A stretch of DNA of 64,000 nucleotides from Alphaproteobacteria bacterium (GTDB taxonomy: Bacteria > Pseudomonadota > Alphaproteobacteria > Rs-D84). A model generated the notes under the pieces. It was not told the origin of the DNA, ran no database searches, and was given only the letters and a program-made list of their open reading frames with translations. The DNA lies in NCBI GenBank assembly GCA_015062525.1, contig SUUM01000004.1, positions 24,547-88,546 on the forward strand. Reading direction: 5' to 3'. Shown here one piece after another: positions 6,931 through 61,317 of this stretch. Numbering within the stretch: the stretch's first letter is position 1; each line of letters starts with the position of its first letter. Position numbers and translations under genes: made by a program.

Positions 6931-7983
6931 TCAGAACCTGTACACCCCAGAAACATTGATATTATGCAGTTGAATCACATCATTATATTTATACCGGTAA
7001 CCAATACCAAACTGTACCCCACGTGCCGACAGCAATTCTACACCACCACTAATATTAGCCCACAATGGATCAATATCAATATCATACCGTATAAACTCAT
7101 CCGCTACAGCAAATTTATATTCTGCATGATTTGGCGCACCGAACACATCATATTCCACCCCAATTGATGCATATGGTCGAACTTGGAACCTTGCCGATGG
7201 ATAAATACGTTTCTGTGCAATCAATGAATACCCCGGCGTTAAAACAAAATACCCATCTGATTGCATACGCAGATACTCATGGCCCGCCACCTTTTCTTTG
7301 ACATTAGACCCGAAATTATAGCCAACACGTACATACAAATTACCCACAACATATTGATTCAGAACATCATGCATCAGTCCCCATTCACTCATCAAACTGA
7401 ACGCAGTACCATCACCATCAATTCTGTCAACCAAGTTCTGGGTACGGTCAACGTCAAAGACATGCAAATCCAAGAACGCATTACCATATAAACGTGTCTT
7501 TTCACCCAGTATTTTCATCAAATAACCGCCCAGGCCAATATCAGTATCTGCGACATCAATACTGACATTTCCCACCTGGGTTGTACCAGCATAACTTAAA
7601 TCCACGGAATCACCCGCTTTGGACGTTGTGTGCGACACACGCCCCGACACCCCCAATTGCAAGGTATTTGATTCCTGCCAGTCAAAACCGCCCGCCACAC
7701 TGACACGATGACCGTCTGTATGTTTGCCATCATTAATATTTTGATAGAAAATACCATAATCGACATCCAACCATGCTTTATTCAAATTGCGATGACGATT
7801 CCAGATAAATTCATCAAACATACGGTCTTCGAATGAACGAAAGGACATATGTTCATTTAGCGCGACCGCCCCCGCAATCTGTTCAACAGATACCAGATTT
7901 TGAGCTGTTTCTGGTTCTACTACATCCGCCCCTGCCCCCATTGGCAGCAAGCAACAAACCAAAGATAACAACTTTTTCATCAT
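6931..7983 (-). CDS. outer-membrane beta-barrel protein (family unassigned)
   Basis: Signal peptide MMKKLLSLVCCLLPMGAGA, alternating beta-strand pattern, C-terminal YRF typical of OMPs. Confidence 0.55.
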   Translation of the reverse strand: MMKKLLSLVCCLLPMGAGADVVEPETAQNLVSVEQIAGAVALNEHMSFRSFEDRMFDEFIWNRHRNLNKAWLDVDYGIFYQNINDGKHTDGHRVSVAGGFDWQESNTLQLGVSGRVSHTTSKAGDSVDLSYAGTTQVGNVSIDVADTDIGLGGYLMKILGEKTRLYGNAFLDLHVFDVDRTQNLVDRIDGDGTAFSLMSEWGLMHDVLNQYVVGNLYVRVGYNFGSNVKEKVAGHEYLRMQSDGYFVLTPGYSLIAQKRIYPSARFQVRPYASIGVEYDVFGAPNHAEYKFAVADEFIRYDIDIDPLWANISGGVELLSARGVQFGIGYRYKYNDVIQLHNINVSGVYRF

Positions 7984-8080: not shown

Positions 8081-9355
<1,275 letters not shown>

Positions 9356-49004: not shown

Positions 49005-49080
49005 GCCGGTTTAGCTCAGCTGGTAGAGCGGCTGATTTGTAATCAGTAGGTCGTTGGTTCAAGTCCGACAACCGGCACCA
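49005..49080 (+). tRNA. tRNA-Thr (anticodon TGT)
   Basis: 76 nt; acceptor GCCGGTT/AACCGGC; loop TTTGTAA; T-loop TTCAAGT; encoded CCA. Confidence 0.8.
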
Positions 49081-49290
49081 GAATTAAAACGTACCATTTG
49101 GTGCGTTTTTTCGTTGGGTTTCCCTGCCTTTTTGATTTTTGTGTTGGGTGGCGAACTTGCGCGGGGCTGGCTATTTTTATTTTATTCGGGGCATGTAATT
49201 CCAACCCATTTCCGCCCCATGCCCCCAAACCACCAAAAACTGTGATGCAACAATAAAAAAAGGCGCCAGTCTGACGCCTTGCTGTATCAA
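49081..49290. repeat. modular ~300-bp repeat, copy R1 (tRNA-Thr-adjacent, terminator-exit variant)
   Basis: Shares the gcgttttttcgtt...attttattcggggc...ctgtgatgcaacaataaaaa core with R2, R3 and R5; ends in a hairpin terminator for the minus-strand gene. Confidence 0.8.
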
Positions 49291-49296
49291 AAAAAT

Positions 49297-49587
49297 TTAC
49301 TCACCATAAACCATCACACAACTTTCAACAAAGAATGGATACAATCCTTCGTTTCTTTCTTCTATGTAGTAAATTTTGCTTATATCAGCATCTAGTGCCG
49401 CCTTCAAAATACTTTTCTCATATTCTATTGGCAATACAAATAAAGCAATTGCGTTACAGGCTTTTCCAACCTTTAATTCTTCAATTTTTGAAAAATCAGT
49501 TTTATTCAAGTCTATTTGGTTTATATATGGCGCATTTACACAAGCAGATAAAAACAACACCGCAAGCAAACAAAATAATTTTTTCAT
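49297..49587 (-). CDS. small lipoprotein (unknown function)
   Basis: Lipobox LSACV; 96 aa; GGAGAAACAT RBS. Confidence 0.5.
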   Translation of the reverse strand: MKKLFCLLAVLFLSACVNAPYINQIDLNKTDFSKIEELKVGKACNAIALFVLPIEYEKSILKAALDADISKIYYIEERNEGLYPFFVESCVMVYGE

Positions 49588-49683
49588 ATGTTTCTCCTTT
49601 TTACTTACATAAAACTAACAGAATATTTTCATAAAATCAATCTTCAATAAGACATGTACAAGCTGAATAATACTTGTTAAAAC

Positions 49684-49985
49684 GCTATGTGAGGCGATGT
49701 GTGATGCAGGCGGACCAAATCAACTGGCCGACCACTATTGGAAATCTTGGACTTTGGACTCGCCTTGGCATCCCGACAAAGGCTACCCGTTTAAAAACGC
49801 ACCAAACGGTGCGTTTTTTGTTTAGATTTCCCTGCCCTGTTGGATTTTGTGTCGGGTGGCGAACTTGCGTGGGGCGGGCTATTTTTATTTTATTCGGGGC
49901 GTGCAATTCCAACCCAATCCCGCCCCATGCGCTAAAAATACAAAAAACTGTGATGCAAAGTGTGATGCATTGTGGTATAGTTAAC
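49684..49985. repeat. modular repeat copy R2 (promoter-exit variant, TGgTATAGT extended -10 at 49973..49981)
   Basis: Contains the gctatgtgaggcgatgtgtgatgcaggc head, a tRNA-Thr 3'-end-like stretch (CGCCTTGGCATCCCGACAAAGGCTACC), terminator AAAAACGCACCAAACGGTGCGTTTTTT, and TGTGATGCA direct repeats before the -10. Confidence 0.85.
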
Positions 49986-50001
49986 TCAAAAGGCACATAA
50001 T

Positions 50002-51201
50002 ATGCAACAGAGACAATTAAACAAATTAAAAGAAATAACCAAACAAAATTTTAGCTTTGTTCCTGCAGATAAAAATATGTATGGAATCAAATACTATGAA
50101 CACAAATGCACAAATGATGCTGAGTACCATGAAATTGCAGGTATATTAAATCAATACCCCAATATGTTCTATACTTGCATAGAACATAAAGACAACACTG
50201 TTTCTATTGCAGTTTTACAAAATATTTTGGACAAAAAACGCATAGAAAATATAATGTGGCACAAAGATTGCCAAGCATCAAAAGTAGAATCCATAGGTAA
50301 AATTCATGGAAATGATATTTTTTTGGAACAAATCCCGACACAATCTGGAACAATGCACAACGTTATCAATCACAGCAACCGGGCAGTCGCAATCGTAAAT
50401 ATTAACGGCTATCGGTTGCCCTTTTATGTCTCTTCTGGAATTTCCGGGAAGGAAACAGAATATGGTATACCGTCAGAAAAATGGTATCCTTTGCAGGGAA
50501 TATCAGACAGTGGTTGGTTAAATAAAATGCCCGACATGCAAAAAAATCCATACCCAGAACTGGACGAAATTTGCAAAATTCTGGAAACAAAATTCCCCGC
50601 CACAAAATACAAAGAAATGGCACTGAACGAAAGTTTGCCTAGAGCCGACAAAACCATACTTTTGGAATATGCGAACAGCAACTTTCCCGAAGGAACCCCT
50701 TTTAATGAAAACGGATTATACCAATACTACAGAAATCACATAATATATTTGCCAGCAATAATAGACGCATGGCGTTCTAAACCAAATGACTATTTAGAAA
50801 TATCAAAAGGAGTGTTGCAGATTTCTGAATTGAACACAGTAGACAAAATTCGCACATTAGATTTGATGGCCAACTCATCATTAGATGGCGATTATATCTG
50901 GTTAAAACCCGTCCAACATCAATTAAAAAACCAGACAGGCGCAGAAACAAGCCAAAACATACAGAATCAACTGCACAACATTGGTATTTTTTCCAATACC
51001 GTTGTTAGCTCTGATAATAAAAATGGGTTTGGTATACCAATCCAAATATTTCAAGACTATTTTAGACAAAAACAAACACAGAAATTTGTGGATGCCACAC
51101 AAAAAATTGATAAGACAGATTCAAAAAAAGACAAAAGACAAAATATTTCACAACATATTATGAAACGCTTTAAAGACCTTCTTGATAACTATAAACGGTG
51201 A
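50002..51201 (+). CDS. hypothetical protein (399 aa, no recognisable domain)
   Basis: Driven by the R2 promoter; AAAGG RBS. Confidence 0.5.
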   Translation: MQQRQLNKLKEITKQNFSFVPADKNMYGIKYYEHKCTNDAEYHEIAGILNQYPNMFYTCIEHKDNTVSIAVLQNILDKKRIENIMWHKDCQASKVESIGKIHGNDIFLEQIPTQSGTMHNVINHSNRAVAIVNINGYRLPFYVSSGISGKETEYGIPSEKWYPLQGISDSGWLNKMPDMQKNPYPELDEICKILETKFPATKYKEMALNESLPRADKTILLEYANSNFPEGTPFNENGLYQYYRNHIIYLPAIIDAWRSKPNDYLEISKGVLQISELNTVDKIRTLDLMANSSLDGDYIWLKPVQHQLKNQTGAETSQNIQNQLHNIGIFSNTVVSSDNKNGFGIPIQIFQDYFRQKQTQKFVDATQKIDKTDSKKDKRQNISQHIMKRFKDLLDNYKR

Positions 51202-51492
51202 GGCGATGTGTGATGCAGGCTGAGTAATCAACTGTCTGAAACCATTGGAAATCTTGGACTTTGGACTCGCCTTGGTATCCCGACAAAGGCTACCCGTTTA
51301 GAAACGCACCAAATGGTGCGTTTTTTCGTTGGTGGTTCCCTGCTCTTTTGATTTTTGGATTGGGCGCAACACCCATGCGGGGCGGGAGGGTTTTATTTTA
51401 TTCGGGGCGCACAAATCCAACCCAAATCCGCCCCACGACCCCAAAACACCAAAAACTGTGATGCAAAGTGTGATGCAGTGTGGTATAATTTG
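51197..51492. repeat. modular repeat copy R3 (promoter-exit variant, TGgTATAAT at 51481..51489)
   Basis: Same architecture as R2; perfect extended -10 consensus 25 bp upstream of the next ATG. Confidence 0.85.
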
Positions 51493-51514
51493 TAGGAAAA
51501 TAAAGGGATAAGTT

Positions 51515-52612
51515 ATGACCAAGATACCAACAGTCAGAGAAATGGAAGAATTATTACTGCGTGATTCCACAACAGACGATTTGATGCCGGGCATGCCCGA
51601 TAAAGACATGCCTGAAAAACAAATAACCGCAGCAGATGTAAAACACGATGTCTCGGTCTTGGCACGATTGCTAATTCGTGCGTATGTTGGATGGCCGGTT
51701 CACAGCCAGATAATAAAAAGAAAGGTTCTTAAAGACCTGGTTGATATTTATAACAATGCCCACGATATGACGGCGATGGAGTTTTTTGAACAACTGAAAC
51801 CGGTCCTGTCATATATCCCAGACAATCACATATCGCTGCGTTTTAATAGGCAACGCGTTGGAACACACAGGACGCGCAAGGCAGTCAATGTCGGAAAAAA
51901 TATTGCTGGCGACAAACAAATTGCCACACAGATGAAAAATGGCATCGCCATAATCGGCTTTACACGCATGTTGCGCAATGATGATTTTGCCAACACAATT
52001 CTTGAATTTGCTAAAAACACACTGCCCAAATCCACCGCATTGATAATAGACCTGCGTGGCAATGGTGGCGGAAACAGTTTTTATTCCGACAAGTTCTCGG
52101 AACATCTGTGTGGCACACGGATTGATAGCATGAAAGAAGTATATATCAGGGCCACCCCAGAGGCAAAAAAACTACAACATGCGGCACAACCAAATGCCGG
52201 CTGGAAAGATGTTCCGGAATCAGAAGAACTGACATTATGGAAAACAGGCAAAAACTATACGGCCAATCCAGAGAAAGCGTATATGAAACCGATATATATT
52301 CTGACCGATGGCCAGACCGGGTCCAGTGCAGAAATGTTCCTGTTGCGCATGATTCACCACCCATGTGTTCATGTTGTTGGCGATAATTCAGCTGGAATGG
52401 AAGAATACGGCAATATGGCAAACAGTTTCCTGCCACACAGCCAAATAACCGTTGCAGTCGGTATGAACTATCGCAAATTATTACAAGAAGATTTCGAATT
52501 AAATGGACACGACCCCGACATCAAATGTCCAGATGGCACAGATGCATTTGCCGTTGCAATGGCCCAGATTGAAAAAGCCAAAACATTACAATCGCAGACA
52601 CCCGAAAGATAG
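51515..52612 (+). CDS. S41-family (C-terminal processing/tail-specific protease-like) peptidase
   Basis: IIDLRGNGGGNS motif typical of S41 peptidases; no signal peptide. Confidence 0.55.
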   Translation: MTKIPTVREMEELLLRDSTTDDLMPGMPDKDMPEKQITAADVKHDVSVLARLLIRAYVGWPVHSQIIKRKVLKDLVDIYNNAHDMTAMEFFEQLKPVLSYIPDNHISLRFNRQRVGTHRTRKAVNVGKNIAGDKQIATQMKNGIAIIGFTRMLRNDDFANTILEFAKNTLPKSTALIIDLRGNGGGNSFYSDKFSEHLCGTRIDSMKEVYIRATPEAKKLQHAAQPNAGWKDVPESEELTLWKTGKNYTANPEKAYMKPIYILTDGQTGSSAEMFLLRMIHHPCVHVVGDNSAGMEEYGNMANSFLPHSQITVAVGMNYRKLLQEDFELNGHDPDIKCPDGTDAFAVAMAQIEKAKTLQSQTPER

Positions 52613-52622
52613 TCCAAAAATC

Positions 52623-53261
52623 CTACACTGCTTGCGATAACCAATCCGGCATATCAATCAGCGTGAATTTTTCACCATCATATTCCAGTTTGAAATATTC
52701 TGCATTTGGCATTCCGCCACGTGGCCATTTTATATCTGTGAATTGTTTGATTATATTTTTCGCCACCCCCGTATGTGTTGCAATGGCGATTGTTTTGCCG
52801 TCTGAGTTTTTTACGATATCCAATATCGCATTACGAACACGCGCAATAAACATATTATAACTTTCACCGTTTGGTGGGACATAATCGTCATTAGACAGCA
52901 ATGCAAACGGTGCATAAATTACATCACCTGACATATCAATCGGGGTATCTGCAGGGCTATCAGTCAATTTTACAATATGTCCACAAAAATCACCCATATT
53001 CCATTCACGCAAATCACCATTTTGTATAATCTGTTGGTCGCCAGCCACCGCACGTGCTGTATCCAATGCACGCGACAACGACGAAGAATACACAACATCA
53101 AACTTTATACCCGACAATTTTTGTGCCAATGCTTGTGCCTGGGCCACACCATTGGCATTTAATGGCACGTCCAGCCACCCCTGCATACGTTTTTGGATAT
53201 TTGCGTCTGTTTCGCCATGTCGAAAGATATAAAGTATTTTTTTCATGATAGAATTATACAA
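52623..53261 (-). CDS. histidine phosphatase (phosphoglycerate mutase-like) family protein
   Basis: N-terminal RHGETDAN catalytic motif. Confidence 0.7.
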   Translation of the reverse strand: MYNSIMKKILYIFRHGETDANIQKRMQGWLDVPLNANGVAQAQALAQKLSGIKFDVVYSSSLSRALDTARAVAGDQQIIQNGDLREWNMGDFCGHIVKLTDSPADTPIDMSGDVIYAPFALLSNDDYVPPNGESYNMFIARVRNAILDIVKNSDGKTIAIATHTGVAKNIIKQFTDIKWPRGGMPNAEYFKLEYDGEKFTLIDMPDWLSQAV

Positions 53262-53289
53262 TCTAAACCACCAATTATCAACATGTGTT

Positions 53290-53345
53290 ATCTGTTAAAA
53301 TGCTATGTGAGGCGATTTGTGATGCACTAATAAAAAAACCGCCCA
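53290..53345. repeat. partial modular repeat R4 (head motif + terminator)
   Basis: gctatgtgaggcgatttgtgatgca followed by ctaataaaaaaaccgcccaatcgggcgggg. Confidence 0.7.
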
Positions 53346-53361
53346 ATCGGGCGGGGTAATA

Positions 53362-54255
53362 TTACCTGTCGTTTTGGTTGTTATTTTTTGCCCAGGACTT
53401 TTGCATCTGATATTTTATTTCATCAAATCTAAATTCTGCAAAACCAATCAATTCAGACAAAAGCATTTCTTTTTCAGCGCGCGTAAATTTGCGCGGTTTA
53501 TGGGTTGCGACAAAATCCGCACGCATTTGGCGTAATTTTGTAGTCTGTTCCCCTGTTGGCATTTTGTGTGGTGACAAAGCCCTGTCTGTGCGAACAATAT
53601 TATTCTGGCGCAGGTTTATGTACGCCATATCGCCGGGACCTTCGGTATAATTTTGATATTTGAAACCAGTCAGACCAATTGATTCAAAATACAAAATCAT
53701 ACGCTGAAAGAACAAGTTTTCTGCGCTGTGGATATCAAATAATGTTTCCAAACCTAATTCTGTTTGTATTGCTTCCACAGTCATTGTGCTACGCACCGGT
53801 TCACATATCCAATCAAACTGCCACGGCACATCAATGTCCTTATCCAACACCGCTTGTTTTGCTGTTTCAATCTGTTTGCGAAACTCAGATTCGTCATGAA
53901 TATTCAACACACGAATGAAGTCGGCAATTTTATCGCCACACATATACTGAAATAAAACCCCCATAAAGTTCTGCACACTGTGGTCGTTCAGGTCTGGTAT
54001 TTCATCCCAACGCCCAGCCTGCAAATTCACGGGTATTATCTTGGGCTTTGTAATATCAATATTTGGGTCGCGTTTCCATTTTCCTTCGTTCAGATTGGTT
54101 TGTGCATTCACCAATTTGCCAAAGTGTGTCAATGGGCGAAAATAATCAAAATCATAATAAGTGCCATGATACATTGTTAAAGGTTTGCCATCTGTCCCCA
54201 ACAACACCGGCGATAAACAATCGGGCATATCAATAATATATGGAAACGAAACCAT
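53362..54255 (-). CDS. hypothetical protein (297 aa)
   Basis: Start overlaps the GNAT gene stop (operon); no recognisable domain. Confidence 0.5.
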   Translation of the reverse strand: MVSFPYIIDMPDCLSPVLLGTDGKPLTMYHGTYYDFDYFRPLTHFGKLVNAQTNLNEGKWKRDPNIDITKPKIIPVNLQAGRWDEIPDLNDHSVQNFMGVLFQYMCGDKIADFIRVLNIHDESEFRKQIETAKQAVLDKDIDVPWQFDWICEPVRSTMTVEAIQTELGLETLFDIHSAENLFFQRMILYFESIGLTGFKYQNYTEGPGDMAYINLRQNNIVRTDRALSPHKMPTGEQTTKLRQMRADFVATHKPRKFTRAEKEMLLSELIGFAEFRFDEIKYQMQKSWAKNNNQNDR

Positions 54256-54836
54256 TACTTACCCTTATATTCCGACTTTAGTTTCGAAAACAACAGATGA
54301 TTCATATATGTGCCGTCTGGCATTTTATTCGCAGCACGTTCAACACCATCCAGTTGATAACCAGCCTTTTTAATCGAATTTACCGAACAAACATTGCCCT
54401 CCATCGCCTGACGACAGATACGATTTACCCCCAGTTCTTCAAAACCCAATTTATCAATCAGCTTATGCACTTCCTGATTAAAGCCTTGGCCGCGAGCAGA
54501 TTTAATAAACCATACACTGGAACACTGTATCGTATCACAATGGTCTATGTAGTGAAACCGCTGATATCCAACGAATTTGCCATTATGAAAGATATACCAA
54601 ACAACACCGTCTTTATAACCTGCCTCTCGCTGCATCAATTTTAACAGTTCATCGACAGATTCAGGCAAATGATTTTTGTATGATGCTGAATACCGCATAT
54701 ACTGATAATCGGCTGGATTTTCATTTTTCAGCACATCCCACAACATCTGTGCGTTCGCAATAGTTGGCTTTAATACTCGCAACTCTAAACGTTCCGTCTT
54801 AATATCGCGATTAAATATTTCATAAAATTTTTCCAT
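54255..54836 (-). CDS. GNAT family N-acetyltransferase (RimJ/RimL-like)
   Basis: 193 aa with acetyl-CoA-binding motifs (Q/R-x-x-G-x-G/A pattern ARGQGFNQ). Confidence 0.65.
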   Translation of the reverse strand: MEKFYEIFNRDIKTERLELRVLKPTIANAQMLWDVLKNENPADYQYMRYSASYKNHLPESVDELLKLMQREAGYKDGVVWYIFHNGKFVGYQRFHYIDHCDTIQCSSVWFIKSARGQGFNQEVHKLIDKLGFEELGVNRICRQAMEGNVCSVNSIKKAGYQLDGVERAANKMPDGTYMNHLLFSKLKSEYKGK

Positions 54837-54888
54837 CTACTTTGTCCTTTTGTTATCCCATTTATTTTATCACATTTTTTGTTAAAAT

Positions 54889-55195
54889 GCTATGTGATGC
54901 GATGTGTGATGCAGGCGGACCAAATCAACTGTCTGAAAATATTGGAAATCTGGGACTTTGGACTTGCCTTGGCATTCCGACAAAGGCTACCCGTTTAAAA
55001 ACGCACCAAACGGTGCGTTTTTTGTTTGGTTTTCCCTGCCCTGTTGAGTTTTTATGCTTGGCGCGCCACCTGCGCAGGGCGGATGGGTTTTATTTTATTC
55101 GGGGCGTGCAAACGCAACCAAATCCTACCCCACGTCCCCAAAACACCAAAAACTGTGATGCAACAATAAAAATCCGCCCATTTGGGCGGGTTTAT
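54889..55195. repeat. modular repeat copy R5 (terminator-exit variant)
   Basis: Full-length copy ending ctgtgatgcaacaataaaaa + hairpin ccgcccatttgggcgg. Confidence 0.85.
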
Positions 55196-55215
55196 CTTGT
55201 TAAATATTTTCACAA

Positions 55216-55782
55216 TTATTCTGCGTCCTGTTGTTTCTTGCGCAACATTAATTCTGGTTTGCCAGCATTTAATTCTGGCGACACTGCAAAACCCAATCCG
55301 TCTATGAATGATTGAATCTGAGATTTCACTTGCGCCACATCCACATCATCGGCGGTGCAATATTCCACCTCTAAAAACAGCCCCAGATCTGCCACAGTTT
55401 CAAATTCAATTGTATAATCGCCCGCACGGTATGTGCGTTTCAGGTTGTCAATCCGTATCAATTCACGCAACCCCAGCGCATTCATAATATCGCACAAAGT
55501 TGACATATCAGCAACGGTTGTTTCGGATTCATCAGAATACAACCATGTGTCACCGTCAAAATGGTCGTACTTGTACGTGATATAATTTGTGCCGTCTTTT
55601 GCACGTGTGCGACAGCATGCATACAAGCGGCCATTGCTGTCGGGTTGTAAATCTGGGCGCAATGGGTCGTAATAGTATGTATCCACCGTACGTTTATCGC
55701 CCAAGAAGTCAAATTCAGATAATTTACGCAGAACATCTGCTTCGTCTGCGAAAACCTGAACCAAGATTTCAATTTCTTTCAT
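55216..55782 (-). CDS. CYTH-domain protein (triphosphate tunnel metalloenzyme / class IV adenylate-cyclase-like)
   Basis: N-terminal KEIEIL and C-terminal GLFLEVEY motifs typical of CYTH; the Lys of EIExK is replaced. Confidence 0.55.
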   Translation of the reverse strand: MKEIEILVQVFADEADVLRKLSEFDFLGDKRTVDTYYYDPLRPDLQPDSNGRLYACCRTRAKDGTNYITYKYDHFDGDTWLYSDESETTVADMSTLCDIMNALGLRELIRIDNLKRTYRAGDYTIEFETVADLGLFLEVEYCTADDVDVAQVKSQIQSFIDGLGFAVSPELNAGKPELMLRKKQQDAE

Positions 55783-56170
55783 AAGATGCACCCTTTGTGA
55801 TATTCTAAACCGCTTTTTCAGAAATATCAATATTTTCCAATGGAATATAATGTCTGTGACACAAGTAAATCCGCCGGCAGTTGTGGATGGAATAGCAGGT
55901 CCAGGATTGGCACCCAGTGCATATCATCGTGGACACGCAGTTGGATTTCGTATGTGTGGTCCAAAATCTTGTATACGTGCGGAATTACACAAGCAGAAAA
56001 TATTGCGCAACCGATAAGAATCTTTTGTTATCCCGCAATTCAATGCTCACCCAAATTCAACAGATGTCAAAAAGGATTGTATGCTGTGAAAAAATCAGCA
56101 TATATAAACTTTGACAACATAAATATTGTAATCTATACTGATTCTATAACCCCAGCCATAAGGATTTGAA

Positions 56171-57016
56171 ATGCCTGAAAAAAACACCCTGTATGATAAT
56201 TTGCGCAATCCAGTTTCAACAATTGAACGCGGGCAACCAATCCCCAGCGGATTGAACAAGCTGTCTGTGCATGTATGGATTGTAAATGATGCCGGCGAAT
56301 ACCTGTTGCAACAACGCATGGGTACGGCCAAGAAATTTCCAAATATGTGGGGCCAGACTGGTGGCGGGGCAATCGCAGGCGAATCCAGTTGGGATGCGTG
56401 TGTTCGCGAAACAATGGAAGAGTTAGGACTGACACCAGACCCAAAAAAATCTGTATTGGTTGGCACAATTAAGCGACCGATAGATTTCGTTGATGTGTGG
56501 CTAGTGCACAGTAATGTTAAAATTTCTGATTTAAAACCACAGGCAAGCGAGGTGCAATCCGTCAAGTGGGCAACACTGGCGGATATTCAACACATGCAGT
56601 ACGACAATGAATTTATTCCGTCTATTGTTCCAGGGTTTAATATGGTTTTGAATTATCAGAAAATGGTAAATCCCACGCCAGTAAATGCACGTGATTTCTT
56701 GGGCAAATTAGTGCGTGTACAAATGGACAGGCCCCTGGGCAGCAAACATCCAAAACACGGCTTTACATACGAAGTGAATTATGGTTTTATCCCAAACACC
56801 ATATCGGGCGATGGCGAGGAGTTAGATGCGTATGTATTGGGGCCAGATTATCCGTTAAAGGATTTTCTGGGACGATGTATTGCAATCATTCACCGTACTA
56901 ATGACAACGACGATAAACTGATTGTTGTACCGGATGGGTTTGATTTTGCAGATGAATATATTGAACAAAAAACTGCTTTCCAAGAACAGTGGTTCAAGCA
57001 CACGATTATAAGATAA
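56171..57016 (+). CDS. NUDIX hydrolase fused to an inorganic pyrophosphatase-like domain
   Basis: Nudix box GGGAIAGESSWDACVRETMEELGL; C-terminal region matches family I PPase (YEVNYGFIPNTISGDGEELDAYVLG vs E. coli [23 protein letters not shown]). Confidence 0.65.
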   Translation: MPEKNTLYDNLRNPVSTIERGQPIPSGLNKLSVHVWIVNDAGEYLLQQRMGTAKKFPNMWGQTGGGAIAGESSWDACVRETMEELGLTPDPKKSVLVGTIKRPIDFVDVWLVHSNVKISDLKPQASEVQSVKWATLADIQHMQYDNEFIPSIVPGFNMVLNYQKMVNPTPVNARDFLGKLVRVQMDRPLGSKHPKHGFTYEVNYGFIPNTISGDGEELDAYVLGPDYPLKDFLGRCIAIIHRTNDNDDKLIVVPDGFDFADEYIEQKTAFQEQWFKHTIIR

Positions 57017-57035
57017 AATCAAGGGGGGGATAGTC

Positions 57036-57440
57036 ATGCGAACACAAACAACAAGCAGATGTTTAATTGTTCAAGGTGATAGCATCGTTTTATGCAAGCA
57101 CTTGGCTGGCGGTTATTATTTCTTGCCTGGTGGTGGATTGGAAATTGGCGAAACATTGAATCAGTGCATTACACGTGAACTGAATGAAGAAATGGGCGTT
57201 GCAGAATCTGACATCACTATTCATGATGGCATCTTATTGGCTATTGAAAATCAGGGCTATGATTCCAATGGAAATTTCCTGTACGGGATTGAAGTTATTA
57301 AACGTGTGGACATCGATGCAGATGACATAAGCAGCAAAGAGGATTTGATTGGCTTTGAAAAAGTGAAAATTTCTGATTTGCCAGGCACAAAATTATATCC
57401 TGTTGTTATTAAAAATTGGATAATAGAAAGATTCAAATAG
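57036..57440 (+). CDS. NUDIX hydrolase
   Basis: Nudix box GGGLEIGETLNQCITRELNEEMGV. Confidence 0.8.
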   Translation: MRTQTTSRCLIVQGDSIVLCKHLAGGYYFLPGGGLEIGETLNQCITRELNEEMGVAESDITIHDGILLAIENQGYDSNGNFLYGIEVIKRVDIDADDISSKEDLIGFEKVKISDLPGTKLYPVVIKNWIIERFK

Positions 57441-57455
57441 AAGGAACACTTACAA

Positions 57456-58205
57456 ATGACAAGATATTATTGCAGCGGTTTTGACCTTAATAATATTTTT
57501 GGACACGGACTTGGCAAGATGTTCAAAGCCGAACTAGAAGACACAAAGAGCATAGTCTATATTCCTGCTGGTGCGGAAAAAATAGAAAAAGCACGTGCAA
57601 AACATATTCCTAATTTCACAAAGCATTTCAAAAATGTGGGAATAGAATTTGAATCTGTAAATATCATCACGCCCGAACTGTCCCCCGCAGAAGCAAAGGA
57701 TATGATAAAAAATGCAAACTTTGTCATGCTGATGGGTGGTAACCCCTATAAGCAAAAAGACCTTTGTAAAAGTTTGAACATTTTAGACGACTTGAAGAAC
57801 TATAATGGTGTTATGCTGGGGTTTAGTGCGGGTGCTATGATGATGTCTAAATATATCATTATCACGCCTTGTAGTGATGAGTTTCCAAATTTTCATATTG
57901 AGCCAGGTTTAAATCTGGATGGCATTTCAATTTATCCACATAATAACACATCAGACAAGGATTATCCGGAAGAACTTGTTTCTGGTGATGAAGTGTATAA
58001 AAAGTCAGATTTGCTACAGGTTGCCAAAGATTATGGTAAATTCTATCTATTACAGGATAATTTAAGAGAAGATGGCCTAACAGATGTCAGCTTTATCAGA
58101 TGTTCTAATGGTAATGTTGAATTTTATATCGAAAACGATGGCAAGATTTGGTTAGTTGACAAGGATATAACGCTGGTTAAAAATAATGAACCGTTGGACT
58201 TTTGA
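57456..58205 (+). CDS. peptidase S51 (dipeptidase E/cyanophycinase-like) family protein
   Basis: LMGGNPY and GFSAGA (Ser nucleophile) motifs match PepE IVGGGNTF / GWSAGA. Confidence 0.6.
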   Translation: MTRYYCSGFDLNNIFGHGLGKMFKAELEDTKSIVYIPAGAEKIEKARAKHIPNFTKHFKNVGIEFESVNIITPELSPAEAKDMIKNANFVMLMGGNPYKQKDLCKSLNILDDLKNYNGVMLGFSAGAMMMSKYIIITPCSDEFPNFHIEPGLNLDGISIYPHNNTSDKDYPEELVSGDEVYKKSDLLQVAKDYGKFYLLQDNLREDGLTDVSFIRCSNGNVEFYIENDGKIWLVDKDITLVKNNEPLDF

Positions 58206-58524
58206 TAATGATGAATTGTTTGAACTAGTGCGCATAGGTCGAAAACGTGGAACCTGTGGCCGGAATTCTGACGAAGAACCAATGGCAAAAATTGGTGATG
58301 TTCAGGAAATCTATAATAGTCGTGGCGAAACAATACGAATTCAAATTACAGCCGTTCGAAAGTGTCGGTTTTGTGACATTGATGACGCATGGGCAAAAAT
58401 AGAGGGCGAAGGCGACCTGTCCCTGGCATACTGGCGTACGGTTCATATTGAATTTTTTAACAAATACTTTCCCGATTTTCAGGAAACTGATTGGCTGGAA
58501 TTAAACGAGTTTGTGGTTATATAA
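58186..58524 (+). CDS. ASCH (PUA-like) domain protein
   Basis: EGEGDLSLAYWRTVHIEFF pattern typical of the ASCH domain. Confidence 0.55.
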   Translation: MNRWTFDNDELFELVRIGRKRGTCGRNSDEEPMAKIGDVQEIYNSRGETIRIQITAVRKCRFCDIDDAWAKIEGEGDLSLAYWRTVHIEFFNKYFPDFQETDWLELNEFVVI

Positions 58525-59299
58525 CCTCTAATTCAATCCCCACAATGCCGTATTTTGATTCCATTTCGGCATCGTAAAATTTTGATATTGCGGACATCAA
58601 TGCGTTTAGCGATGCGAAACCGGTTCGGGGCATGCTGATTTTTGTGGCCAAGTCTGCAAAACTGCGCGCAATATGCAGGCGAACGATCTTTGCACGAATA
58701 TAATCATTGCGATTTTGCGCATCATATATCAGAATAACGTCGCCGTTGTGCATTCTGCGACGTTTTTCATCATACAGGCACAGTTCAATATCCTTTTCGC
58801 CGGAACGCACCATTTCATAATATTCAGGGCGCAAGCTCATTGAAAATTTACAGTCCAAGTTTGGCAAAATGTGCAGCGCATAAAATTCACGCATATCGTC
58901 AAATGGTGTGATTTTTGGGTTTAATAAGTCGTCGGGGGCAACCCATGCAACCGAAATTTCTTCGGGGCGATTTTCACAGAAATTCAATTCCATATCATCT
59001 GGGACGTGAACGATAAAAAAGTGATGTTCTTCGGCCCATGCGCCACGTTTTTGCGCCCGTTCGGGGGTTGGGTGACGAAATGCATATGGCACCGGAATTT
59101 CAACCACTTGGTCTGCCAGCGCAGATACAGCTTCGCCCAATTCTTCGGTCAGTTCACGCCGCAACGCAGTCAAAAAATCTTCGCCATCATCCAGTCGCCC
59201 GCCAATTGGTCCGTATCCGTTTTCGCCGTATTTTAATAGTGCAACCTGTCCATCACGCACTGGCAAGATATATGCTGAATAACTGATATCTTTTATCAT
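58517..59299 (-). CDS. NUDIX hydrolase fused to a C-terminal ASCH-like domain
   Basis: Nudix box PIGGRLDDGEDFLTALRRELTEELGE; C-terminal YYEMVRSGEKDIELCLYDEKRR..GDVILIY resembles ASCH. Confidence 0.6.
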   Translation of the reverse strand: MIKDISYSAYILPVRDGQVALLKYGENGYGPIGGRLDDGEDFLTALRRELTEELGEAVSALADQVVEIPVPYAFRHPTPERAQKRGAWAEEHHFFIVHVPDDMELNFCENRPEEISVAWVAPDDLLNPKITPFDDMREFYALHILPNLDCKFSMSLRPEYYEMVRSGEKDIELCLYDEKRRRMHNGDVILIYDAQNRNDYIRAKIVRLHIARSFADLATKISMPRTGFASLNALMSAISKFYDAEMESKYGIVGIELEVI

Positions 59300-59301
59300 C
59301 T

Positions 59302-59802
59302 CTATTCCTGGGGTTGTAGGGGTTCAATTGTTTGAATCGTCATATGTATTTCGCCTGATGGCACACTAACGGTTGTTTCATCCCCAACAGATAATCCGAC
59401 CAAGGGATGAACCAGTGGCATATTATATGCGTACTTTTGTTGCGGTATGTCTTCTGCCCCCAATGGCACAATCCCCAGCCTGCATTCTGTTTCTGCGCCA
59501 GTGGTTTCATTTTCTTGGGTCACGCATACCCAGCAATACAGTCCGACTGTTTCTGTGGTTGCCGGCTTATTCCTTGGTACGACAAGCATATTGTCCAGGT
59601 CTGCCAATAAATCAGCGACCAATTTTTCTGTCTGCTTTTCTTCCCTGGTCAAATGTTCATAGGCAAAATTATCATGCCATGTGTTTGTGTCTTCTGTGTA
59701 TGCAGCTGTCTTATCGTTGCGTATCTGGGCCAGTCGCTCTTGCAGCCCTTGAACCTTCCGTTGGGACTTATCAAAGTATTCTTTTGTTACAAAAATTTTC
59801 AT
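59302..59802 (-). CDS. GreA/GreB-domain protein (Rnk-like)
   Basis: C-terminal FKBP-like GreA domain pattern (VGLSVGDETTVSVPSGEIHMTIQTIE). Confidence 0.5.
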   Translation of the reverse strand: MKIFVTKEYFDKSQRKVQGLQERLAQIRNDKTAAYTEDTNTWHDNFAYEHLTREEKQTEKLVADLLADLDNMLVVPRNKPATTETVGLYCWVCVTQENETTGAETECRLGIVPLGAEDIPQQKYAYNMPLVHPLVGLSVGDETTVSVPSGEIHMTIQTIEPLQPQE

Positions 59803-59811
59803 TTCTGTTCC

Positions 59812-60582
59812 TTACAGATTTAATAAAACATCCTTTATTCGTGAACGAACTGCATGGTATTTTGCACGCAAGTCTGCGCCTTGGCCGACCAGATGTTGGC
59901 CAACGGCTGAATTATCAGACACAACCAACAGTGCCGATGCGGGTTTGCCTATAATCTGCATGGCCTTGAAAAAGGTTGCCGTTTCCATTTCTATCAGGGT
60001 TGCGCCCATTTGTCGAAACTCGTCCAAGTGTGCATATTCGCAAGCGATACTGTCGATTGATATTGGTGTCGCATCTTTGGTAGACATACCAACACTTGTG
60101 CAAACTCTCGACAATTCTGCATTTAATTCTGGTGATGAATATGTGCGTTCAAACATCTTTTCTGGACTTAATTTATCATCCAGGTACAATGTTGCGCCAT
60201 TGCCAGATATAGAACATGTTGGAACAATAACATCCCCGATTTCTAGTTCCGGAACCAATGAACCCACCGAGCCAACAAATACAAATTTTGCACAGTTGGC
60301 CGAATGACAGGACAAACAAAAGTCAACTATATTTGGCGCACCAACCTGTAATTGAATATATAAGTATGATTTGCCGTTATGTTTTATACGATGTGATTTT
60401 GAGAATCTGTCTGAATATATTTCAGCAATATCTGTTGTGGCACTATCAAAGACTTTATCAATTGGCCAAGATGGTGCAATAAATACGCAATCAAAATGTT
60501 CGGCAGACGATATTCCATACAGCTGTTGTAACATATCCGAACAAGATATGTTATCCTGACATGATTTGACTATTTTATTCAT
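59812..60582 (-). CDS. PNP/UDP-phosphorylase superfamily nucleosidase/phosphorylase (MTAN-like)
   Basis: FVGSVGSL and IEMETA motifs of the PNP_UDP_1 fold. Confidence 0.6.
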   Translation of the reverse strand: MNKIVKSCQDNISCSDMLQQLYGISSAEHFDCVFIAPSWPIDKVFDSATTDIAEIYSDRFSKSHRIKHNGKSYLYIQLQVGAPNIVDFCLSCHSANCAKFVFVGSVGSLVPELEIGDVIVPTCSISGNGATLYLDDKLSPEKMFERTYSSPELNAELSRVCTSVGMSTKDATPISIDSIACEYAHLDEFRQMGATLIEMETATFFKAMQIIGKPASALLVVSDNSAVGQHLVGQGADLRAKYHAVRSRIKDVLLNL

Positions 60583-61052
60583 TTTGTATCCTTTGATGCA
60601 CTGCGATATGATTTACATTCGGAATATATTTCGCCACGCGCCAATCCCGCCAATGATATACGGGTTGTTGAAACAACGTTCTTCAATTTGGCGACTTCGT
60701 CCAATGTGAAATATTGCATATCGGCACACTTGTCCCCCTCGCAATTACGAATTGTGCCGGTGTATTTTGACACCTCGAAAAAGAAATCAAAAGATTCTGT
60801 GCGACTGGCCAGATTGCTGGTAACGTGTACGCATTTGATGTCGTCGGGCGCAATGTCGATATCCAGTTCTTCTTTGGCCTCACGTATGGCGGCGGCACGT
60901 GCGGTTTCACCTTGTTCAATGTGCCCCGCCGGCAGAACCCACCAACCACCATCATAATTAAAAAAGCCATCATTGCGGAAGAATAATAACACTTTGTCGT
61001 CTTTTTTTATAATCAGGTTTATTACACCCTTGAACATTGCGCGTTCTGCCAT
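60579..61052 (-). CDS. NUDIX hydrolase
   Basis: Nudix box GHIEQGETARAAAIREAKEELDI; 4-bp overlap with the upstream gene. Confidence 0.8.
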   Translation of the reverse strand: MAERAMFKGVINLIIKKDDKVLLFFRNDGFFNYDGGWWVLPAGHIEQGETARAAAIREAKEELDIDIAPDDIKCVHVTSNLASRTESFDFFFEVSKYTGTIRNCEGDKCADMQYFTLDEVAKLKNVVSTTRISLAGLARGEIYSECKSYRSASKDTK

Positions 61053-61317
61053 TTCTTATCCTTTTTCTTATCTTAAACTGCTTTTTACGAAAATTCAATT
61101 ATTTCATATGGCCATTTTTATAATCGATATTTCTAATTCTTCTGGTGTTATACCTGCGTGGTGACTTTTAAGCACAAATGTGTCTGGCCGCTGTTTCAAG
61201 TCATATTTATCAGTTGCCAGCGCAACAAAATCATCAAAAACCGTGATATGATAAGATAAAAAACTTTTTTACACAAAACAGCCAATCGTAAAAAGAAAGC
61301 ACCATTTGGTGCTTTCT

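Follow-up and report, generated by a model that had tools for sequence, protein, structure and literature searches.

Tandem 9-bp repeats in a cassette array beside tRNA-Thr as probable arm-type sites of a tyrosine integrase

What are the short direct repeats that stand in front of cassette genes beside a tRNA-Thr gene in an alphaproteobacterial genome? The array in question lies in a 64-kb window (64,000 nucleotides of contig SUUM01000004.1, to which all coordinates below refer), and its junctions carry a 9-bp motif, TGTGATGCA, two copies of which immediately precede two of the cassette promoters. The original prediction offered two roles for the motif: a binding site for a transcription factor controlling all cassettes, or an accessory site for a recombinase. 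The evidence gathered here favours the second. The motif is probably an arm-type site, bound by a heterobivalent tyrosine integrase through its N-terminal DNA-binding domain, and the locus, judged from sequence comparison, is most likely a tandem accretion of integrase-less cassettes at tRNA-Thr, a reading drawn from its recombinase-site layout together with the link of the same sites to integrase genes elsewhere.

Ten exact copies of TGTGATGCA occur in the window, against a mean of 1.44 in dinucleotide-preserving shuffles, whose maximum is six; none of 100 shuffles reaches ten. The copies start at 49241, 49700, 49949, 49961, 51209, 51457, 51469, 53318, 54905 and 55154, all on the + strand, and all fall within 49241-55162. 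The remaining 58 kb of the window holds no exact copy, and one-mismatch variants stay at chance level in the window (32 found, 31 expected). The motif search proposed with the original prediction, run here on the 64-kb window, thus found exact matches above chance, and the tandem strings upstream of the promoters are present as described there. In the repeat named R2, the string aaaaaCTGTGATGCAaagTGTGATGCAttgtggTATAGT places sites at 49949-49957 and 49961-49969 ahead of a TG at 49973-49974, a TATAGT hexamer at 49976-49981 and an ATG at 50002; in R3, the sites at 51457 and 51469 are followed in the same arrangement by TATAAT at 51484-51489 and an ATG at 51515. In both repeats 6 nucleotides (nt) separate the end of the second copy from the hexamer, and the TG stands one base 5' of it. 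The 12 bp between paired copies are counted from start to start, the spacer being AAG. A third copy had been placed in the head of every repeat, which is true of R2 to R5 (49700, 51209, 53318, 54905), each accompanied 12 bp upstream by a degenerate copy (TGTGAGGCG at 49688 and 53306, GGTGAGGCG at 51197, TGTGATGCG at 54893), and untrue of R1, the genuine downstream region of tRNA-Thr, which for that reason lacks a head. The rest of the earlier structural account, with its repeats R1-R5, head motif and cassettes, proved accurate.

Could the tandem copies be operators of a transcription factor, such as a response regulator of the OmpR/PhoB type, that co-regulates the cassette promoters? Their placement invites the idea: the pair lies directly 5' of a conserved extended -10 element, over the -35 region, in R2, R3 and many + strand cassettes of other loci (numbered L001 onward), one copy sits within the spacer between TTGACA and TATAAT in L018, and response regulators typically use tandem direct repeats. 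The R2 and R3 promoters were read by eye as extended -10 promoters with no good -35 element and are missed by a simple -35/-10 scan. The sites, however, keep one orientation, set by the array, though the cassette genes lie on both strands. At + strand cassettes the pair, in direct orientation, extends over roughly -39 to -19, whereas at - strand cassettes it is inverted and upstream of -36, and the promoter lies leftward of the head (in cassette 4 an extended -10 at 54864-54874, which reads as the reverse complement of ATTTTATCACA). Sites also occur where there is no promoter: 49241 and 55154, the single-copy tails of R1 and R5, run into terminators of minus-strand genes, and 53318 joins two cassettes. 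The period is 12 bp rather than 10-11 bp, the window counts reveal no regulon-like excess, and an identical pair follows integrase stop codons in unrelated taxa. Because the sites follow the polarity of the array, occur without promoters and are confined to the array, the response-regulator reading is unsupported and very improbable, and the common regulator first proposed for all cassettes has to be set aside. Two other candidate identities, a CRP half-site (TGTGA) and a DnaA box, were rejected, with no inverted partner and a poor match.

The repeats that hold the sites are derived from the tRNA gene. The order of the array, from alignment A1 and the repeat families, is tRNA-Thr, R1, cassette 1, R2, cassette 2, R3, cassette 3, R4, cassette 4, R5. 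Its anchor is a tRNA-Thr gene with anticodon TGT (49005-49080, + strand; found by ARAGORN, and with 72.8 bits to the Rfam tRNA model). R1 (49081-49249, +; alignment A1, repeat family D1) is this gene's own downstream region, made up of the terminator and the body part b3 and ending in a single TGTGATGCA at 49241-49249, and is equivalent to a P' arm. A full repeat runs from a head, TGTGAGGCG-ATG-TGTGATGCA, through a 240-bp body and a G-rich stretch to a tail, the body consisting of a degenerate tRNA-Thr copy plus the tRNA's terminator; some copies keep a true tRNA 3' end, CCGACAACCGGCACCA. R2 (49674-49969, +) resembles a phage attachment site (attP), with head sites at 49688-49696 and 49700-49708, a body at 49709-49948 in which the alignment and a terminator scan place a pseudo-tRNA-Thr and a terminator (49793-49818), and the two tail sites given above. 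R3 (51197-51477, +), also attP-like, has head sites at 51197-51205 and 51209-51217, a body at 51218-51456 and tail sites at 51457-51465 and 51469-51477. R5 (54893-55162, +), again attP-like, has head sites at 54893-54901 and 54905-54913, a terminator at 54997-55022 and a single tail site at 55154-55162. R4 (53306-53326, +) is a collapsed, bodyless repeat reduced to its head sites at 53306 and 53318. Perfect tail copies thus number one in R1 and R5 and two in R2 and R3, and the geometry of R2, R3 and R5 is a pair, 55 nt, a T-arm, 169 nt and the tail site or sites, 270-282 bp overall.

Two side observations concern these repeats. The loop of the body terminator (49793-49818, 51302-51327, 54997-55022 and other loci) differs from copy to copy, as CCAAACGG, CCAAATGG or CCATTTGG. 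Of these, CCAAATGG is the reverse complement of CCATTTGG, as would suit an exchange region that is invertible or symmetric. The cassette-2 open reading frame (ORF) ends in a stop codon, a TGA at 51199-51201, that lies inside the degenerate R3 head site at 51197-51205, an overlap that has a parallel in L071 and L077, where the integrase stop codon overlaps arm sites.

The link between the motif and an integrase comes from metagenome contigs, which were scanned for the exact 20-mer TGTGATGCAAAGTGTGATGC. Beyond Enterousia-type arrays, it occurs in contigs of 27-52% G+C without an Enterousia body. In L031, L049, L054, L055 and L069 the TGTGATGCAAAGTGTGATGC pair starts 1-20 nt past the stop codon of homologous tyrosine-integrase genes, and in L076 a near-identical pair does likewise. 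A complete tRNA gene lies 58-100 nt past the pair in L049, L054, L069 and L076, facing the pair in all of these save L069, where it runs in the same direction; L055 has a tRNA fragment beyond the pair, and the L031 contig ends too early to tell. A tRNA-Leu faces the pair at 85 nt in L060, with no integrase gene directly adjoining, and L035 has a frameshifted integrase homologue and the pair on the far side of a tRNA-Leu. The site-linked integrases combine PF00589 with SAM-like domains, their nearest solved structures are 3nkh and the Tn1549 Int (6emy, 6emz), and their N-terminus matches Arm-DNA-bind_4 (PF14657) at a score just short of the Pfam cutoff. In related loci an excisionase-like HTH_17 gene stands 5' of int where a phage-like element ends. 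The sites of L055 and L070, both next to integrase genes, frame attP-like regions, in which a pair, 71-73 nt, a tRNA fragment of 47-60 nt, 134-135 nt and a second pair follow one another over 307 bp (L055) or 295 bp (L070), a layout that matches R2, R3 and R5 of the window.

Homologous integrases at 59-77% identity have a tandem pair at the same position and with the same 12-bp period, in sequence that drifts. Its variants include TGTGACGCA with TGTGATGCA, TGTGATACA with TGTGATACG, CGTGATGCT with TGTGATGCT, TGTTACGCA twice, TGTTATGCA with TGTTAGGCA, and CTTTAGGCA twice; the integrase-linked forms can be written TGTKAYRCW or CTTTAGGCA. Such a pair, at most about 20 nt after the stop codon or overlapping it, is present in 10 of the 11 homologous integrase lineages, and the motif is conserved over lineages of 27-44% G+C once matches in coding repeats are left out. 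Those matches, in L032, L036, L046, L047, L052, L053 and L063, fall in coding Cys-Asp-Ala-Lys repeats or lie in frame and were dismissed as irrelevant to the role of the motif. A pair that drifts along with its integrase behaves as would be expected of arm-type sites read by the integrase N-terminal domain. Of the two roles first suggested, it is thus the recombinase accessory site that finds support, in a tandem pair that elsewhere adjoins tyrosine-integrase genes and stands in both arms of attP-like sites.

Some further contigs with the pair show other surroundings. In L059 (- orientation, 8366-8768), L061 and L066 (30-34% G+C), an imperfect palindrome, TGGTGCGGACC-CGTGTGT-CGGCACCA, lies about 75 nt past the pair; L059 has another pair, overlapping an integrase-like ORF at its 5' end and followed by TGGTGCGGACC, with which the start of the Enterousia body, GGCGGACC, may be compared. 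The context of L040, L041, L048, L051 and L058 (27-31% G+C) is Gram-negative, with LpxD and FabZ genes nearby in L051; here a promoter-like TTGTGT...TATAAT stands immediately upstream of the pair, and no integrase is visible. Viral contigs scanned for the head and for the double site gave no matches, and a literature search on the motif and on Enterousia found nothing relevant. Exact-protein look-ups with ackA and the histidine phosphatase likewise returned no match, so that the collection queried does not contain the source genome.

Short direct arm repeats, often in tandem and present in both attP arms, are known for lambda Int (P1/P2, P'1-P'3), for the Int proteins of Tn916 and Tn1549 and for IntDOT. 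An attP of the arm type spans about 240-300 bp, with a central core sharing identity with the target, the int gene adjoins it, and the integrase has a separate N-terminal arm-binding domain. R2, R3 and R5, each with a head pair and one or two tail sites around a 240-bp body, have direct-repeat arms within such an attP-size span. What sets the window apart from the lambda, Tn916 and IntDOT systems is that its sites flank the junctions of tiny elements without an integrase, and that the same arm sequence, with its 12-bp period and predicted binding, recurs in lineages far apart from each other; neither the window of this organism nor the Enterousia-type loci yielded the cognate integrase. IntDOT's sites of the core type and the arm type are treated in works listed among the references of PMC5812530.

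A mechanism can be proposed on this basis. R2, R3 and R5, at about 270-282 bp, would be attP-like junctions in which the tandem sites of the head form the P arm, the one or two sites of the tail form the P' arm, and the centre, taken from the tRNA-Thr 3' end and terminator, is the place of strand exchange. Small circles, each with one attP and one or two genes, would have been inserted successively at tRNA-Thr by an integrase encoded outside the window and acting in trans, leaving a cassette, an attP-like junction and the next cassette in turn; each repeat is likely to be a P-O-P' junction where one element meets the next, as happens between tandem prophages. Junctions with a head only, R4 among them, would arise by deletion of the body between flanking direct copies. 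The tail pairs of R2 and R3 cover the -35 region of a cassette promoter, and integrase binding there could plausibly dampen transcription.

Arrays of the same kind in other genomes make it possible to ask where the exchange takes place. A scan for the head motif in one genome per species returned 30 loci, about 25 of them from Candidatus Enterousia or gut Alphaproteobacteria metagenome-assembled genomes (MAGs); the U32-peptidase region of the window is 88% identical to that of an Enterousia MAG, which makes an origin of the window in this genus probable, and tRNA-Thr lies upstream of the array in five more loci (L005, L006, L011, L014, L020). A second lineage, of about 35% G+C (L034, L042, L044, L056), has the same architecture at a different tRNA. 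More than 60 junctions, tabulated from 25 genome loci, show one or two sites, at the 12-bp period, joining any left to any right context, junctions without promoters included. On the left stands a cassette end (...AAAATGCTA) or a body end (...CCAAAAAC), and on the right a body start (GGCGGACC...), a conserved promoter-leader (TTGTGGTATAAT...) or a terminator belonging to a minus-strand gene. The body-adjacent copy is perfect at most junctions, and the cargo-adjacent copy is more often degenerate. In 18 of 18 tails that were anchored independently of the motif, the 8-mer GTGATGCA is retained, while the bodies are only 61-82% identical. The number of 12-bp units varies, with one before the TRL cassette of the window (49241), two before that of L033, and three in L034 and L042.

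Homology breakpoints were compared among 34 Enterousia-type loci. Cargo on the left travels with the head, the pseudo-tRNA and the terminator as far as +111 to +114 past the head site (L013/L018/L027; L020/L065), and for cargo on the right the stretch that travels along, made of terminator, b3 and tail, begins 181 or 158 nt ahead of the tail site (L005/L038; L020/L027). The exchange block is likely the tRNA 3' end plus terminator because the two ranges overlap there; breakpoints within the body range from +59 to +114, in an alignment with too few informative sites to fix the crossover. One more observation falls near this block: in L005 (4075-5337), L008, L011 and L013 (766-1869), a minus-strand gene for a 420-aa HNH_5 protein starts right after the body terminator and takes the place of b3 and the tail sites, perhaps as the result of an insertion into or close to this block.

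Might the 9-mer instead be the crossover itself, the core site of an integron-like system in which an unidentified recombinase moves cassettes and bodies of about 250 bp as units bounded by TGTGATGCA? Many homology blocks do end 0-3 nt from a site edge in both partners (53326 against L026, L008 and L015), left ends fall at site starts (L029/window, L005/L013, L015/L038), and every combination of left and right context is seen. Bodies are found between perfect copies, bodyless junctions exist (R4, L001:2004, L012:2196, and L023 at raw position 7223 on the - strand), and so do hybrid junctions such as AAAAAC-TGTGAGGCGATG-TGTGATGCA. The breakpoints inside the body count against it, as do the attP regions of L055 and L070, where the pair is 71-135 nt away from the segment of tRNA identity in which exchange must occur, and tandem direct repeats have none of the inverted symmetry of tyrosine or serine recombinase core sites. 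Ends at site edges would also be expected from the outer limit of a conserved attP or from deletion of a body, and the homology ends that fall exactly on a site edge belong to bodyless junctions: high-identity homology to L026, L008 and L015 stops exactly at 53326, the end of R4. L029 keeps a 94-bp mini-body and a double site before the cassette that follows R4 in the window; R4 is therefore read as a repeat collapsed by deletion between flanking direct copies, and mini-bodies of deletion origin are also found in L003, L015 and L022. A crossover at the 9-mer is accordingly judged unlikely.

Two other identities for parts of the array were discarded. The body is not a miniature inverted-repeat transposable element with a target-site duplication, as it has no terminal inverted repeats and its flanking 9-mer is invariant. 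A Xer/dif-like site was rejected; the cassette end TTGTTAAAATGCTA is somewhat similar to a XerD arm, but a 28-bp dif structure is lacking and the sequence is not conserved across cassettes. The string TGTG...GGCGGAC is reminiscent of a Tn7 end, but the sites of the window are direct and not inverted repeats.

Several findings weigh against an arm-type site. The site-associated integrase family was not found in the 64-kb window or in 33 Enterousia-type loci, and the match of its N-terminus to PF14657 (Arm-DNA-bind_4) lies just below the cutoff (E 2.6e-4, 21 bits against 22.3). The contigs that link motif and integrase come from other organisms, with Clostridiales as the nearest named relatives; their tRNA-Leu(cag) differs from that of the window, and relative to the sites the tRNA-derived segment of their attP has the opposite orientation to that in the window. 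The sites suffice to join cassettes, as head-only and mini-body junctions show, so that a secondary deletion step has to be added to the model. The integrases that Enterousia-type loci do encode are P4-like, sit at the anticodon loop of tRNA-Thr and have different arm repeats. These tyrosine integrases (PF00589 plus Arm-DNA-bind_3; L010:769-2183, L019:4063-5232, L024, L027, L042:1399-2960) adjoin a half tRNA that begins at the anticodon loop, tRNA-Thr in the Enterousia loci, and belong to islands of their own in that tRNA, on the upstream side of the cassette array. The tandem arm repeats of these integrases are TTCATCRTYA in three copies and AAAATACTAC in two, and the P4-like integrases of L010, L019 and L042 were rejected as unlikely binding proteins for TGTGATGCA, the P arms carrying these other repeats. 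Within the window, Pfam searches and phmmer searches of the ORFs for a tyrosine recombinase found no recombinase gene in or near the array, and a 412-aa protein that recurs beside the sites turned out to be a secreted repeat protein rather than a recombinase.

An array without its integrase might be a relic, left by past integrations or by duplications of the tRNA region, in which the 9-mers persist by descent, gene conversion and 12-bp slippage. No cognate integrase is nearby, bodies decay by deletion (the mini-bodies named above), the distal site at 61244 has decayed and the copy number of the 12-bp unit slips. Against this reading, the exact 9-mer stands in all ten copies of the window while the bodies are only 61-82% identical. 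The motif is moreover conserved across the lineages of 27-44% G+C, and several loci share cassettes at 90-97% identity, in other orders, beside different neighbours and in different MAGs, which indicates recent exchange. It may be that an element at another place in the genome serves the array in trans, or that the array is largely fossil; activity is favoured because near-identical cassettes have been reshuffled recently, and a wholly dead array is improbable.

The cassettes are mutually unrelated accessory genes on both strands, as judged by Pfam. Cassette 1 (49250-49673, -) holds a TRL-like gene (49297-49587, -; PF13146) and, from the terminator scan, a terminator at 49260-49280 (-). Cassette 2 (49973-51201, +) has an extended -10 promoter and a 399-aa ORF (50002-51201) with no Pfam match. 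Cassette 3 (51481-53305) begins with the extended -10 whose TATAAT was given above and encodes an S41 peptidase (51515-52612, +) and a histidine phosphatase (52623-53261, -), genes that reappear in other Enterousia loci in different contexts. Cassette 4 (53327-54892, -) comprises a terminator (53339-53354, -), a 297-aa ORF (53362-54255, -) with a weak ART-PolyVal (ADP-ribosyltransferase-like) Pfam match, and a GNAT gene (54255-54836, -). Unrelated + strand cassette ORFs (49971-50001 and 51479-51514 in the window; L005, L015, L019, L023 and L024) share a near-identical promoter-leader with the common layout TGTGGTATAAT-TTGTGGGAAATAAGGGATAAT-ATG, and between the window and L015 high identity begins exactly at the start codon at 51515. 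Beyond R5, a distal island without intact sites (55163-61255) carries genes assigned by Pfam to CYTH, three NUDIX, S51 peptidase, ASCH, GreA-like and PNP-like families and is closed by a decayed site, CGTGATATG, at 61244-61252. L005 and L023 lack these distal 6 kb, their last double site directly adjoining the homologue of the window from 61256 onward. The neighbours of the array are ackA, a U32 peptidase gene, pgk and tRNA-Thr.

Among known systems, similar in mode of growth are the arrays of ICESt1 and related cis-mobilisable elements (CIMEs) of Streptococcus thermophilus, which arise when site-specific integration is repeated at a single att site, so that att sites come to separate the elements (as cited in PMC5812530: Pavlovic, 2004, pmid 15073287; Bellanger, 2011, pmid 21722203); members of such arrays that have no integrase retain their att sites and are open to mobilisation in trans. 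Like CIMEs, the integrase-less segments of the window lie between att-like sites and are stacked at one integration site, and the same holds in about 25 MAG loci. Unlike ICESt1 and CIMEs, the units measure 0.4-2 kb, hold one or two genes and have a promoter or terminator of their own, and at least four of them in the window are reshuffled among many MAGs, which makes the array more cassette-like than any described CIME. No helper element for their mobilisation was identified in the window or in Enterousia-type loci. Tycheposons, in the tRNA-linked genomic islands of Prochlorococcus, are a second comparison: these tyrosine-recombinase elements target tRNA genes, and repeated integrations push older elements deeper and leave partial tRNAs and degenerate remnants (bioRxiv 10.1101/2020.12.28.424599). 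Their hosts share small, streamlined genomes with the present organism, but tycheposons carry their own integrase and replication modules, and neither attP-like repeats bounded by arm sites nor single-gene cassettes are described for them in the portion of the preprint consulted.

The likeness to integrons (IntI, attI with DR1/DR2, attC) is of another kind. Here too a one-directional array of small cassettes lies beside a fixed entry point, the same cassettes occur in different orders across genomes, and direct repeats with a predicted role in recombinase binding stand near a promoter. Unlike integrons, the array has no intI beside it, its junctions are 270-bp attP-like repeats derived from a tRNA and not attC hairpins of 60-140 bp, its cassettes have their own extended -10 promoters and terminators in both orientations, and exchange takes place probably in the tRNA-derived block. 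The locus is not a member of the integron family and is integron-like in outcome only. A bolder version can be entertained tentatively: Enterousia and the second gut lineage (L034, L042, L044, L056) may possess an integron-like capture platform assembled from complete attP sites of the lambda/Tn916 type in place of attC. As a further possible part of this picture, single-gene circles, each with one attP of about 280 bp, tandem TGTGATGCA and its own promoter, might move in and out of the tRNA-linked site through an integrase supplied in trans. It is equally conjectural that this integrase belongs to a family shared with Firmicute phages and that occupancy of the arm sites gates cassette transcription.

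One lesson for annotation is that tandem repeats near promoters in repeat-bounded islands are not to be read as regulator sites, and TGTGATGCA-AAG-TGTGATGCA offers a simple tag with which such arrays and their integrases can be found in metagenomes. If the arm-site reading is right, the motif would serve an integrase as the handle for assembling a variable island of small accessory genes, 12 kb in size, beside tRNA-Thr in an uncultured gut alphaproteobacterium with a reduced genome, and phage-type attP sites served by a trans-acting integrase would be a second route, besides integrons, to ordered arrays of single-gene cassettes.

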